37,456 bases of DNA from Kofleriaceae bacterium (GCA_018057605.1 JAGPDK010000001.1:1-37456); one strand, 5' to 3'. Positions 8,876 to 12,392 are shown, numbered from the stretch's first letter. Program-made: numbers and translations. The notes: generated from the sequence alone by a model not told the origin.

Positions 8876-11053
8876 CTACACGATGCGGCCCATTTCACTA
8901 TATTCGGCCCGCGCAGCTTCAAAAATGTCCTGGGTGCCAATGGCGCGTTGCGCAGAAACCGCGTTGAGCGCCGCGCGTAACGCAGCTTTTTTGATGTAGC
9001 CGCCGGCCATGACGAAGCGTTTGGCGATCATGTCCCAATCAATATTGGCGTCGAGCGGGACTTTGGGCGGGAACATGCTGATCCATAAACGTTTGCGCTC
9101 AGCTTCTTCGGGCAATTCAAATTGCACGCTGAACCGCACGCGGCGTTTGAACGCTTCGTCGAGGCCTTGCTCTAAGTTGGTAGCCAGCAAGGTAACGCCG
9201 TCGTAGGTTTCCATGCGCTGCAACAAATAATTCACTTCTAAGTTGGCGTAGCGATCATTGCTGGATTTTACTTCGGTGCGTTTGGCGAACAGCGAGTCGG
9301 CTTCGTCGAAGAACAGCACTGCATGTGATGATTCGGCTTCTTCAAAAACTCGCGCTAGGTTTTTTTCGGTTTCACCGATGTACTTATTAACAATTTGCGA
9401 CAAGTCGATGCGATACAGATCATAGCCCAGCTCATTGGCTAGTAATTGGGCCACCATAGTTTTTCCGGTGCCCGGCGGGCCGGCCAAAATTGCCGACACT
9501 CCGCGCCCGTACGGTAGCTTGGCGGCGAAACCCCATTGTTCAAGGAGAAACGGCCGATGTCGCGCAAAGCGAACAACTTCGCGCACGGCTTCGAGGGTGT
9601 CAGGTGGTAACACCAAATCATCCCAGCGAAAACCGGTAGGAATGCGCTGTGCTAACGCACCGAGGCGATGCGAAAAGGTTAAGCGCGAGGCATCGCTGAG
9701 ATCTTCGAGCGTAACGTGCAGTTTTTGGGGATCGCGCAGTCGTGCACTGGCTGCCGCGCGTCGAGCTGCGCGTGCGATGGCCGCGCCGACGAAGGCGTAG
9801 CGGCCTGCGACAATATCCAGATCTTCGTCGCTGGCAATCTCACCCGGCAACGCTTGGCGCCACATGGTTTGGCGCTGCGAAAAGGTTGGAGGCGGAATTT
9901 CGAGTTCGACTAACTCGGGGACTGCAGCGGCAAGCCACGCGGGGCGGGTGGTTAAGGTGAAGACAATCGGCACGCGCAACGAGCTACAGGCATCGCTGAT
10001 GGCATCGGCCATACCGCGTGGGATGTCATCTTTGAATGCACTGCCACCGTCGAGAATGGCCACCGCGTCGCGCAGGGCGGCTTCGCGCAACGCTGCAGCG
10101 AAGCGCTCCGTCAACCGGCCTCCTTCGGCGACTAACGTGGCCAGGTCGATGCGTACCGAGCGCCGGCCGCGCGCCCCAACCAAGGCCTCGACTAACAACG
10201 CACGGCCGACGCCTTCTTGGCCGGCGAGTAACAAGCGGGCCGGGCCGTACAGCTGCAAATCTTCGGTGAGGCCTAAGCCGCGCGCGACCTGGGCGATGAT
10301 TTCTGGCGCAAACACCAACGTTTCAATTGCCGGCGGTTGCGCTGCGACTTTGCATATTCCGCGCACCGACTCGTCGATCGATTCATGATTGCGCAAGGCA
10401 TCGACCATGCGATCCGAGATCCGCACGGTGCGTAGGCTGTTGGGTATGGCATCGCTGGCGGAACTGACCGTGACGATGCCAAAGCGCCGGAGCGGGCTTT
10501 GATCGGCCAACCGGGTTAACACCAAGTCTTCGGTTTTTTGGTTGCCAGCGCCAAACACGCGCGCGACAAATCCCATATCGACGCGCTTTTTTGAAAAGTC
10601 ATCGATGGCGTAGGCAAAGAGCCGTTCAACGTCTTGGTCGAGCTCGGGCGCTAGCAACAAGGCTGCGATGTACACGTCCATATCGAGCAGGTCAAACACC
10701 CGGCGAATGCGACCCAGCGGGGATTCTGGAACCGTGTTGGTCAGTGCCATTACTTCATCCAGGGCCGCAGCCAACAGCGTTTCCTCTTTGGCAATTTGCG
10801 GCGTGAAGTCATCGGAACGCCCGGCCAGAATGGCGGCGACCTCCTCAGAGCTTGGCCCATATTGCGTGGTTGCTGTGATTTGCCGCCGCTGCGCGTGGCT
10901 GACCAGGTAATAGCTAATCACCGCACGGGCAAATCGAACAATGGTATCAGCGCGCTCAAACATGCGGCAAAGATAGCCGTAAACTCGATGAGTTATAAGG
11001 GAAGGTGAGCCTCGCTGTAGCGTAAATTGATCGACAAACCCAGTCCAACCCAT
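8876..11053 (-). CDS. two-domain AAA+ ATPase (degenerate D1, canonical Cdc48/FtsH-type D2)
   Basis: D2 has Walker A GPPGTGKT (nt 9458-9481), Walker B LFFDEAD and the classic-clade segment [16 protein letters not shown]1 has only a degenerate P-loop, GQEGVGR (nt 10202-10222). An alternative start at ATG 10963 (MFERADTIV...) would leave a 109-bp divergent intergenic region instead of 19 bp. Confidence 0.85.
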
Positions 11054-11072
11054 GTTAGCGTGAGCCCCTCCA

Positions 11073-12392
11073 ATGGCCCAAGATTCTCAACAACACGATA
11101 ACGGTAGGCAGCAACCATCGTCTTTGCAGAAGGGGGCCGAAAACGGCGCCGCACCGACCGCAACGGGGCCGGGCTTGCAATTATTGAAGCTTGCCAAATC
11201 GAGTTCGGCTCAAGCCGATGCAGTCAAGATTGTTGAGTTGATGCGCGAGTATCCAGGTGAGCGCAATGCCATGATGACATGGCTGCACCAACATCGCGGC
11301 AATTCGTTTGTTCAGCAAGTGACGCAACAGATGGGGCAAGTCGAACGCGAGCTTCCCGCTGGTGTCGATCTCAAAGAAGTGCGCGGTAGTTTTGCGATTC
11401 CTGGTGGCCGCATGTTAGCCGGCAGTTGGAAAGCTGAAGTCAAAACGTCAGGACCGACAACGGTTGAAGTTGCCGTTGGTCATGCCGGGGTTTCAATGCG
11501 GTTTTGGCCTGGCTTGTTTATTGATGCGCAATGGCCGCTGCAAAATTTGATGGTGAACAGCGCGACGTACACTTTTGGTGATAGTGACGTCAAAATCAAC
11601 GCGGGCAAAGACAGCGGCTTGGGTTCGGGCATGATTTCGATCCGCGACAACGTCACCGACATGCTCAGCCAAATCATCATGAAGGCCGTGGGCGGCAAAG
11701 CCCCGGCGGTCGCAGGCTACAATCCAATCAAAGACGCCAATCTTGAAAGCAACCTGCGCACGCTGATCGATGGCGTTGCTGCGATGTTTACATCGGGCGG
11801 CGACAAGGCTAAGCCGGGCAAAATGCCGGTGGCGACAAGTGAAATGAAGGGGCTGTCGGCGGGTGCCACGGTTCATGCGCAATTGTCGCAATCGTTTGGT
11901 GGGGCCAGCGCTGGGTTAACCCTAGATGCTAATTCGGAAATTGAAATCGACGCCGATGGTGCCGGTTCGGCCGCAGACGTATTGTCGGGTGGCACGCTCG
12001 AAGAATCGATGACAGCGGCGTCGCTCCAGTCGATTCGGATTCGTTCGCGCGGGTTGTGCGTGATGATGAAAGGTGAGCCCGCGGTTCGCTTGCATTCGCT
12101 CACGGTCATGCGGGGTGGCGCGGTGGTCGTGGGTCGGATGGAACTGCTCGGCAGTCTCAAAGCTTCGGCAGACACAGAATCGGGGTTATCGGCGCTTGCC
12201 GGATTGCTGGCGTTAGCTACCGGCAGTTCGGCGGCGAGTGGGCTGTTCGAACACGCACAGAATCCACACTTAGTTAGTGGCGTTGCGCGCAAAGAAATCG
12301 AACGGCAGTTCACCAGTGTGATCCACTCGTTGGTGATGGAGTACCGAGGTGCAGTGCCGGGCGTCGATTTAGTAAAAGTGCTCGGGCTGTAA
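11073..12392 (+). CDS. hypothetical protein (439 aa), divergent partner of the AAA+ ATPase
   Basis: ATG-started ORF whose periodicity looks like coding sequence. The N-terminus is Gln/Gly-rich and probably disordered. Motif WLHQHRGNSFVQQV at nt 11280-11321. A Gly/Ala/Leu hydrophobic segment GLSALAGLLALATGSSAASGLF sits near the C-terminus (nt 12183-12248). No signal peptide and no catalytic motif recognised. Confidence 0.6.
   Translation: MAQDSQQHDNGRQQPSSLQKGAENGAAPTATGPGLQLLKLAKSSSAQADAVKIVELMREYPGERNAMMTWLHQHRGNSFVQQVTQQMGQVERELPAGVDLKEVRGSFAIPGGRMLAGSWKAEVKTSGPTTVEVAVGHAGVSMRFWPGLFIDAQWPLQNLMVNSATYTFGDSDVKINAGKDSGLGSGMISIRDNVTDMLSQIIMKAVGGKAPAVAGYNPIKDANLESNLRTLIDGVAAMFTSGGDKAKPGKMPVATSEMKGLSAGATVHAQLSQSFGGASAGLTLDANSEIEIDADGAGSAADVLSGGTLEESMTAASLQSIRIRSRGLCVMMKGEPAVRLHSLTVMRGGAVVVGRMELLGSLKASADTESGLSALAGLLALATGSSAASGLFEHAQNPHLVSGVARKEIERQFTSVIHSLVMEYRGAVPGVDLVKVLGL

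Follow-up and report, generated by a model that had tools for sequence, protein, structure and literature searches.

A divergent AAA+ ATPase and cargo-like gene pair in Kofleriaceae: a candidate detached loader/cargo module of extracellular contractile injection systems

The divergent gene pair and its ATPase

The stretch of DNA analysed here, hereafter the window, comprises 37,456 nucleotides from a Kofleriaceae bacterium (GCA_018057605.1, JAGPDK010000001.1:1-37456), and contains a back-to-back pair of genes encoding an AAA+ ATPase of the Afp15/Pvc15/Alg15 type, the loader family of extracellular contractile injection systems (eCIS), and a partner protein of 439 residues. The ATPase gene occupies 8876..10963 on the minus strand, with its ATG start codon at 10963, and encodes 695 residues. 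The partner gene occupies 11073..12392 on the plus strand, leaving a divergent intergenic region of 109 bp (10964..11072), which was aligned with the intergenic DNA of orthologous loci to give four sequences in all. A preliminary description of the locus, made from the sequence alone, reported the open reading frames (ORFs) 8876..11053(-) and 11073..12392(+), both of which are present as described, with the former being the longest ORF and using an upstream ATG to give a reading of 725 residues. However, in the orthologous loci L001, L003, and L004 the 30-codon stretch preceding Met31 is interrupted by stop codons, and the orthologues of the ATPase are called at 695 residues; we therefore place the start at the ATG at 10963. 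The 725-residue ORF reported previously exists, but the true protein has 695 residues, its upstream extension being broken in the orthologues, and of the 19–109 bp proposed for the intergenic region only the 109 bp end is borne out, the 19 bp end falling with the corrected start. Both ORFs are real genes under purifying selection, beyond what chance would produce, with the ATPase gene differing from its orthologue in L001 by 266 synonymous and 37 non-synonymous codon changes, and homologues of the 439-residue protein reaching down to ~20% identity.

The N-terminal part of the ATPase contains a winged-helix domain (Pfam PF22977, “winged helix domain, variant”; residues 56-201 of 695, or 86-231 in the 725-residue numbering; 10361..10798, minus strand), matched with an E-value of 1.7e-15 and a score of 57.8 bits against a cutoff of 27. 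It is followed in the Pfam search by a single scoring AAA module, corresponding to the second ATPase domain, D2 (PF00004, E = 6.4e-34; 9110..9490, minus strand). Between the two lies the first ATPase domain, D1, the degenerate P-loop of which, GQEGVGR (10202..10222, minus strand), is confirmed by translation and has an Arg in place of the Walker A Lys (G-x-x-G-x-G-R). The Walker B position of D1 reads ILDGG, with the Asp kept and the catalytic Glu gone, such that the inactive D1 proposed in the preliminary description is found to be degenerate at a second motif as well. The live, classic-clade D2 of that description is likewise complete, with Walker A GPPGTGKT (9458-9481, minus strand, by translation), including the GTGKT core, Walker B LFFDEAD (9296-9316, minus strand, by translation and motif alignment), including FFDEAD, the pore loop KYIGETEK, likewise confirmed by translation, with its KY pair, the sensor-1 motif LLATN with its Asn, and the Arg fingers KRR (FKRRVRF) all present, and these motifs aligning column for column with those of eCIS ATPases.

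The similarity to eCIS ATPases extends over nearly the full length of the protein, with 32–36% identity to ATPases encoded inside eCIS operons, which are themselves 31–44% identical to one another. The ATPase of one such operon from a soil metagenome (L023) is 36% identical to that of the window, and also carries PF22977. A tblastn search of annotated plasmids gave two matches covering at least 85% of the query. The first, on Nostoc plasmid pn3 (34% identity over 97% of the query), follows baseplate genes, a gene for a 2074-residue DUF4157 protein, and a hypothetical protein gene, and the second, on Rhodococcus plasmid pWB1 (34% identity over 85% of the query), is followed by genes for Pvc16, sheath, tube, LysM, gpD, gpV, PAAR, gp25, and baseplate proteins. 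Relatives of the ATPase number ~190 at E ≤ 0.001, and the 120 of these that were listed are 44–93% identical over the N-terminal 470 residues and come from Kofleriaceae and other Myxococcota metagenome-assembled genomes (MAGs). Identity within Kofleriaceae is 59–95%, compared with ~27–36% to the ATPases of eCIS operons, and the Kofleriaceae proteins form a clade of their own. This homology places the ATPase in the eCIS loader family, as the preliminary description had suggested in likening it to the Afp15/Pvc15-type accessory ATPases, and it is predicted to be a hexameric AAA+ unfoldase with a winged-helix N-domain, a structural, non-hydrolysing D1, and a catalytic D2.

Through D2 alone, the ATPase strongly matches PDB chains of VAT/Cdc48/p97 (E about 1e-43), and it also matches IetA in PADLOC (E = 4e-34) and the NCBIfam models IteA, PAN, and CDC48. 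However, all Cdc48/PAN/IetA-type matches are confined to D2 (residues about 450-715, with that to PADLOC IetA spanning 479-714 only), and the NCBIfam scores lie far from their cutoffs, at 108 bits against 510 for IteA, 96 against 500 for PAN, 95 against 803 for CDC48, and 71 against 600 for FtsH, such that no family-level score to FtsH, Cdc48, or PAN is obtained. The N-domain is PF22977, and neither a double-psi barrel nor the transmembrane/protease module of FtsH, and PADLOC returned no match for the three neighbouring proteins submitted to it, so that no IetS partner was seen among those. Identities of the ATPase as IetA, Cdc48/PAN/FtsH, or EccA were accordingly rejected as D2-only matches below cutoff.

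A 696-residue “ATPase” is also encoded on Serratia marcescens plasmid pE05 (L021, 1-25335), and is 32% identical to that of the window over residues 208-659 and 27% identical in a full-length alignment. It lies in an unannotated array of co-directional genes, followed by genes for proteins of 293 and 2435 residues, in an order that appears to resemble an Afp/PVC-type cluster.

The 439-residue protein and its C-terminal domain family

The partner protein begins with a low-complexity head (residues 1-29; 11073..11159, plus strand) that is rich in Gln, Ala, Ser, and Gly and poorly conserved, and is a candidate loading leader. It is predicted to be disordered on the basis of the low confidence of the AlphaFold2 (AF2) model over these residues, with a pLDDT score (the value predicted for the local distance difference test) of about 32–34. 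The head is followed by a conserved helical N-region (residues 33-91; 11169..11345, plus strand), defined by the AF2 model and by conservation, with helices predicted at residues 33-40, 46-59, 61-75, and 77-91, the last three making up a three-helix region (residues 46-91). This region includes the motif WLHQHRGNSFVQQV (the WLHQHRGN..VQQV region; 11280-11321, plus strand, by translation), and both region and motif are restricted to Kofleriaceae-type members of the family described below. Towards the C-terminus lies a Gly/Ala/Leu-rich segment, the best 19-residue stretch of which (residues 374-392) has a Kyte-Doolittle value of 1.49. The head, which is Gln/Ser/Gly/Ala-rich, the motif, and the hydrophobic segment were all listed in the preliminary description and are all present.

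A reading of the C-terminal segment as a transmembrane helix was not retained, as the segment is only moderately hydrophobic and forms a conserved, Gly/Ala-rich helix buried in a predicted helical bundle, with 19-residue Kyte-Doolittle values of about 1.0–1.7 across the family; the point is not decisive. Comparison of the N-region with the eCIS_core regions of family members using hhalign reveals no similarity, and the idea that WLHQHRGNSFVQQV is a decayed form of the eCIS_core motif HExxHxxQQ was rejected, with an hhalign probability of about 1% and the motif region left unaligned. The weak likeness of GN..VQ to N-terminal motifs of cargo proteins, offered in the preliminary description, is not supported, there being no profile similarity to eCIS_core and the motif occurring in Kofleriaceae-type members only.

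The remainder of the protein forms a C-terminal domain of ~345 residues (residues 95-439; 11355..12389, plus strand), delimited by profile searching and the AF2 model, which represents a family not previously described. A word-indexed homologue search found seven close relatives, and six when repeated with a diverse profile, the family becoming visible only by an exhaustive profile search, in which 266 clusters (at 50% identity) were matched at E ≤ 1e-3, and 70 at E ≤ 1e-30. The conserved unit spans residues ~90-439 and is always C-terminal among the mapped matches, with a median tail of four residues after the domain in 94 full-length matches. Of these, 7 have an N-terminal extension of no more than 15 residues, 51 have one of 16–110 residues, and 36 have one of more than 110 residues, compared with 89 residues before the conserved unit in the window protein. 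Amongst members with longer N-termini, 36 of 59 carry eCIS_core (PF13699, formerly DUF4157) N-terminal to the domain. In one 998-residue protein (P0270) the domain instead follows the Phage_GPD, Phage_base_V, and Gp5_trimer_C domains of a VgrG spike, a fusion that includes the domain over roughly its first three quarters only (profile positions about 5-260 of 337). P0270 is encoded at the end of an island (L014, 4869-12997) consisting of vgrG (897 residues), a 141-residue gene, PAAR (326 residues), a 308-residue gene, and vgrG (998 residues, P0270 itself).

The AF2 model of the core domain alone has a pLDDT of 83.9 and a predicted template modelling (pTM) score of 0.78, and shows a pair of β-rich blocks together with two long helices and, at the C-terminus, a bundle of helices. 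Foldseek searches of the PDB and BFVD with this model returned nothing credible (best E = 0.017 and 0.003 respectively, TM-score ≤ about 0.2), with weak and insignificant resemblance to LolA/LprG-like and LamG-like β-structures. The 439-residue protein has no match in Pfam, NCBIfam, PADLOC, or PHROGs, and PDB sequence and profile searches with its family found nothing. Its earlier description as an orphan is correct to the extent that no well-characterised or curated family and no known fold was matched, and incorrect in that the family around it comprises 266 clusters. Fusions to eCIS_core and VgrG, together with the neighbourhood patterns described below, mark the domain as a payload of contractile injection systems (CIS), and the family is a candidate for a previously undescribed payload-type module of these systems. 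The 345-residue domain could moreover be a new effector fold of eCIS/VgrG systems, found mainly in Myxococcota so far.

Gene neighbourhoods within and outside Kofleriaceae

The closest relatives of the locus are MAGs labelled Kofleriaceae (Myxococcota), in which the divergent pair sits between a major facilitator superfamily (MFS) transporter gene and ribF. The ATPase and its partner are respectively 95% and 77% identical to those of the window in L001/2/9, 94% and 76% in L003, 78% and 57% in L004/5, 63% and 43% in L008, 64% and 37% in L012, and 61% and 36% in L013, with a 1.7-kb contig (L006) preserving an N-terminal fragment of the ATPase and a partner of 39% identity. Where the flanks are long enough (L001, L003, L004, and L008), the partner gene is followed by a membrane protein gene and ribF. 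A 322-residue gene upstream of the ATPase orthologue in L007 was considered as a homologue of the partner, and rejected as encoding a lipoprotein unrelated to the family.

Outside Kofleriaceae the sample is small, with a profile-based locus scan using a narrower alignment returning five metagenome loci. In L023, a complete eCIS operon places a homologue of the 439-residue protein immediately behind the loader ATPase, the gene order being an ATPase with the winged-helix domain (WHD-AAA), a 431-residue family member with a short N-terminal domain (NTD), a 601-residue protein, an eCIS_core protein, PAAR, and then Pvc16_N, sheath, and two tube genes. L019 (7948-15060), in a Myxococcales MAG (GCA_013360285.1), encodes an eCIS_core protein with the C-terminal domain (625 residues), a WHD-AAA ATPase (753 residues), a second eCIS_core protein (496 residues), and a 374-residue protein of no assigned family, CIS structural genes being absent from the surrounding ±10 kb, and represents a second, independent “orphan” loader/cargo module. 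In L024 an AAA ATPase lies ~3 kb upstream of an eCIS_core protein with the domain, and in L022 two eCIS_core proteins occur in tandem. The domain and the ATPase family are thus found together in at least four arrangements, namely divergent (Kofleriaceae), with the ATPase downstream (L019), with the ATPase immediately upstream (L023), and with the ATPase ~3 kb upstream (L024). The test of linkage called for in the preliminary description is thus positive, the pair being kept in Kofleriaceae at partner identities of 36–43%, and relatives of the partner adjoining the same ATPase family in three or more further loci of different arrangement. Recurrence of the domain behind eCIS_core, behind VgrG, and beside the loader ATPase in an eCIS operon bears out the cargo-like nature that had been proposed for the partner. 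Solitary copies of the domain family are also common; lone effector copies are typical of contractile systems, in which effector and accessory genes are commonly found far from the main cluster.

Alignment of the four orthologous intergenic regions reveals two conserved blocks, GATAGCCGTAAA (10972-10983), located 9–20 nt from the ATPase start codon, and a TAG-n-GTGAGC-like block (about 11054-11064), located ~10–20 nt before the start of the 439-residue gene. A scan of the locus for sigma-70 promoters and terminators found nothing in the intergenic region, and the blocks themselves match neither a sigma-70 promoter nor an Rfam family, with no Rfam family found in the whole window. The blocks could be regulatory sites.

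Downstream of the ATPase gene, at a distance of 70 bp and in the same orientation, lies a gene for a 98-residue protein (8509..8805, minus strand), which retains 99–100% amino acid identity in L001-L005, compared with 78–95% for the ATPases and 57–77% for the partners of these loci. Its gene differs from that of L004 by 52 synonymous codon changes and 1 non-synonymous change, which points to extreme purifying selection, although its place in the module is uncertain. The protein was not found in the more distant loci, being limited to the close clade. On the other side, directly downstream of the 439-residue gene, lies the gene for a 320-residue polytopic membrane protein with ~8 hydrophobic segments (12578..13540, plus strand), for which no family match was obtained. 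Its position is kept in the window, L001, L003, L004, L008, and L011, the last of which has no ATPase, and its identity drops from 78% to 37% to ~0 across the loci. The retention of such a fast-diverging membrane protein downstream of the partner would, speculatively, fit an immunity protein acting against a membrane-acting toxin. The protein could by this speculation be an immunity or partner protein, with its membership of the module likewise uncertain, and we offer as a low-confidence guess that the payload is a membrane-directed toxin and the downstream polytopic protein its membrane immunity.

The region of ~4.0–22 kb is syntenic with annotated relatives, and includes genes for DUF8575, MFS, ribF, dapA, dapB, speA, and UvrD, and the right part of the window contains nadA, YkuD, MoxR-DUF58-TgpA, GNAT, def, and pyrD. 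Upstream of the MFS gene (4012-7288, minus strand) are genes for a DUF8575-family protein, assigned by orthology to L003, and a 513-residue protein that begins like a lipoprotein and matches no family; neither this protein nor the 98-residue protein is matched in Pfam, NCBIfam, PADLOC, or PHROGs. The same position in L001 (431-5940) contains instead a CHAT protease and a TPR/Peptidase_M48 protein, which makes this a variable spot beside the conserved block. At 26268-30769 (plus strand), genes for a MoxR-type AAA_3 ATPase, a DUF58 protein, and a TgpA-like transglutaminase (TgpA_N, Transglut_core, and DUF4129) form an apparent operon that is unrelated to the divergent pair.

Interpretation and comparison with known systems

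We consider it the most likely explanation, and somewhat more probable than not, that the divergent pair constitutes a detached eCIS loader/cargo module, serving a putative injection particle encoded elsewhere in the genome. An orphaned ATPase/cargo module was also the main line of the preliminary description, and is supported by both homology and context. The 439-residue protein appears to have the layout of an eCIS cargo, with a predicted disordered head, a helical N-region, and a C-terminal payload domain of ~345 residues. In the mechanism we propose, the shared 109-bp divergent region would drive both genes, the ATPase would recognise the N-terminal region of the 439-residue protein, through either its disordered head or its conserved helical part, and would then unfold and thread the protein, powered by ATP hydrolysis in D2, before passing it to the contractile injection particle encoded elsewhere.

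A number of observations weigh against this interpretation. The 439-residue protein has no Pfam match to eCIS_core (DUF4157, HExxH), and no sheath, tube, or baseplate gene is present in the parts of the 37-kb window that were checked by annotation and synteny, as the preliminary description had stated, with the check leaving aside two unannotated ORFs, 36..1235 and 1806..3182, at the start of the window (~3.2 kb). Spike genes are likewise absent from the parts checked, and none of these four kinds of gene occurs in the flanks of ±10 kb retrieved for the Kofleriaceae relatives. The neighbourhood of the pair is a stable one of housekeeping genes, and its inheritance looks vertical, which is unusual for effector modules, and the eight Kofleriaceae loci represent one inherited arrangement, that is, one event and not independent observations. 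The two genes are moreover separable, with L011 keeping the MFS gene, partner, membrane protein gene, and ribF without the ATPase, and L007 having an ATPase orthologue without the partner. In other Myxococcota and metagenomes, the loci L018, L020, and L027 and the contig encoding P0153 have no ATPase in the available flanks of 7.5–10 kb.

The pair could instead be a domesticated, CIS-independent unfoldase-substrate pair, kept as a chromosomal core module after the loss of a contractile particle or without one, in which the ATPase would remodel, unfold, or membrane-insert its partner, or pass it to another export route, in a cell-autonomous or developmental role. We regard this explanation, the second option of the preliminary description, as doubtful. 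It is favoured by the stable position of the pair between the MFS gene and ribF-dapAB across lineages with only 59–64% ATPase identity, by the strong purifying selection on the ATPase, which retains 95% amino acid identity where the partner retains 77%, and by its ~190 relatives, those listed coming from Kofleriaceae and other Myxococcota MAGs. The lack of CIS genes in any fetched Kofleriaceae flank, and the existence in L019 of a further ATPase and eCIS_core module devoid of structural genes within ±10 kb, are also in its favour. However, contractile systems often have effector and accessory genes at a distance from their main cluster, and finding the partner domain on VgrG, on eCIS_core proteins, and within a full eCIS operon argues for its delivery through an injection machine. 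Furthermore, the characterised members of the ATPase family all load eCIS particles (10.64898/2026.05.27.728243; PMC11495950). A fuller version of the CIS-independent pair, in which the unfoldase would serve a dedicated substrate, for example in the export or insertion of a protein active on membranes, the membrane protein and the 98-residue protein are further components and the 345-residue domain is in addition a new effector fold, seems a little more doubtful again.

It is less probable still that the two genes are simply neighbours without a functional link, held together by inherited synteny, with the partner acting alone, for example as a solitary toxin or a structural protein. The descent of all Kofleriaceae loci from one ancestral arrangement, the retention of one gene without the other in L011 and L007, and the short-NTD family members of L018, L020, and L027, with no ATPase within 10 kb, are consistent with such an explanation. 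Inherited synteny alone does not readily account for the domain lying beside this one rare ATPase family in four or more different arrangements, which cannot be derived from one synteny block, and through its fusions to eCIS_core and VgrG the domain is linked to the machinery to which the ATPase belongs. An identity of the ATPase as a housekeeping or defence AAA+ protein (Cdc48/VAT/PAN-like, FtsH-like, or the IetA of IetAS), unrelated to injection systems, is what the D2 matches would suggest, and is very improbable given that the near-full-length matches are eCIS ATPases and that full-length comparisons already contradict it.

If the pair is indeed a detached loader/cargo module, the genes for a loader ATPase and a cargo-type protein can be maintained as a unit of two, distant from any structural cluster and stably inherited in a myxobacterial family. 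Should a CIS be encoded elsewhere in the genome, the two proteins would provide a natural pair in which to study loader-cargo recognition, with a lineage-specific helical N-region replacing DUF4157, and should the genome encode no CIS, the pair would be the first sign of a function for this unfoldase family outside injection particles; the interest of the locus would rise if host genomes proved to have no contractile injection system. In addition, the ~345-residue family, with its 266 clusters, no Pfam model, and no structural analogue, is a candidate for a new fold among toxins or effectors, in a field in which eCIS cargo is being actively mined and engineered.

Compared with the known loader ATPases Pvc15, Afp15, and Alg15 (Cis15-type), the window ATPase has the same layout, with a winged-helix N-domain, D1, and D2 in about 700 residues. 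Pvc15, which is needed for cargo loading, has a winged-helix-like N domain, a D1 in which Lys is replaced by Arg and Walker B has neither Asp nor Glu, and a D2 with “DEAD” (PMC11495950). The Lys to Arg replacement is therefore common to both proteins, whereas the D1 of the window ATPase keeps the Walker B Asp. Unlike the genes of Pvc15, Afp15, and Alg15, that of the window ATPase lies outside a sheath/tube/baseplate operon, being divergent from just one cargo-like gene, among housekeeping genes.

On the cargo side, DUF4157 is a core and marker domain of eCIS, located N-terminal to variable toxin domains (PMC8213781), and the cargo proteins of AlgoCIS consist of a disordered NTD, DUF4157, and a variable C-terminal domain (CTD), with the NTD and the AAA+ ATPase Alg15 needed for loading and DUF4157 dispensable (10.64898/2026.05.27.728243). 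The window protein resembles eCIS cargo such as Cgo1 and Cgo2 of AlgoCIS, and the eCIS-associated toxins (EATs) of Geller et al. 2021, in its folded C-terminal module, which shares homology with the CTDs of numerous eCIS_core proteins, and perhaps in its head, which is predicted to be disordered. It differs from them in having no eCIS_core, a domain that is optional in known cargo, with Pdp1, Pnf, Mif1, and Pne1 all known to be without it (10.64898/2026.05.27.728243), in the lineage-specific nature of its helical N-region (WLHQHRGN..VQQV), and in belonging to a CTD family that is undescribed and has no fold analogue. P0270 provides a similar comparison with the evolved VgrG spikes of type VI secretion systems (T6SS) and CIS, as it carries most of the same domain, and the window protein is without the spike module.

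The module of L019 is a parallel in organisation, as it likewise places an eCIS-type WHD-AAA ATPase beside the same class of cargo, with no structural genes within ±10 kb. Its genes are however co-directional, its cargo proteins both have eCIS_core, and its ATPase is 30–32% identical to that of the window, such that the two loci are not orthologous. In comparison with these systems, the loader family is known, and what appears to be new at the Kofleriaceae locus is a detached, divergent, and vertically inherited loader/cargo pair, together with a previously undescribed payload family.

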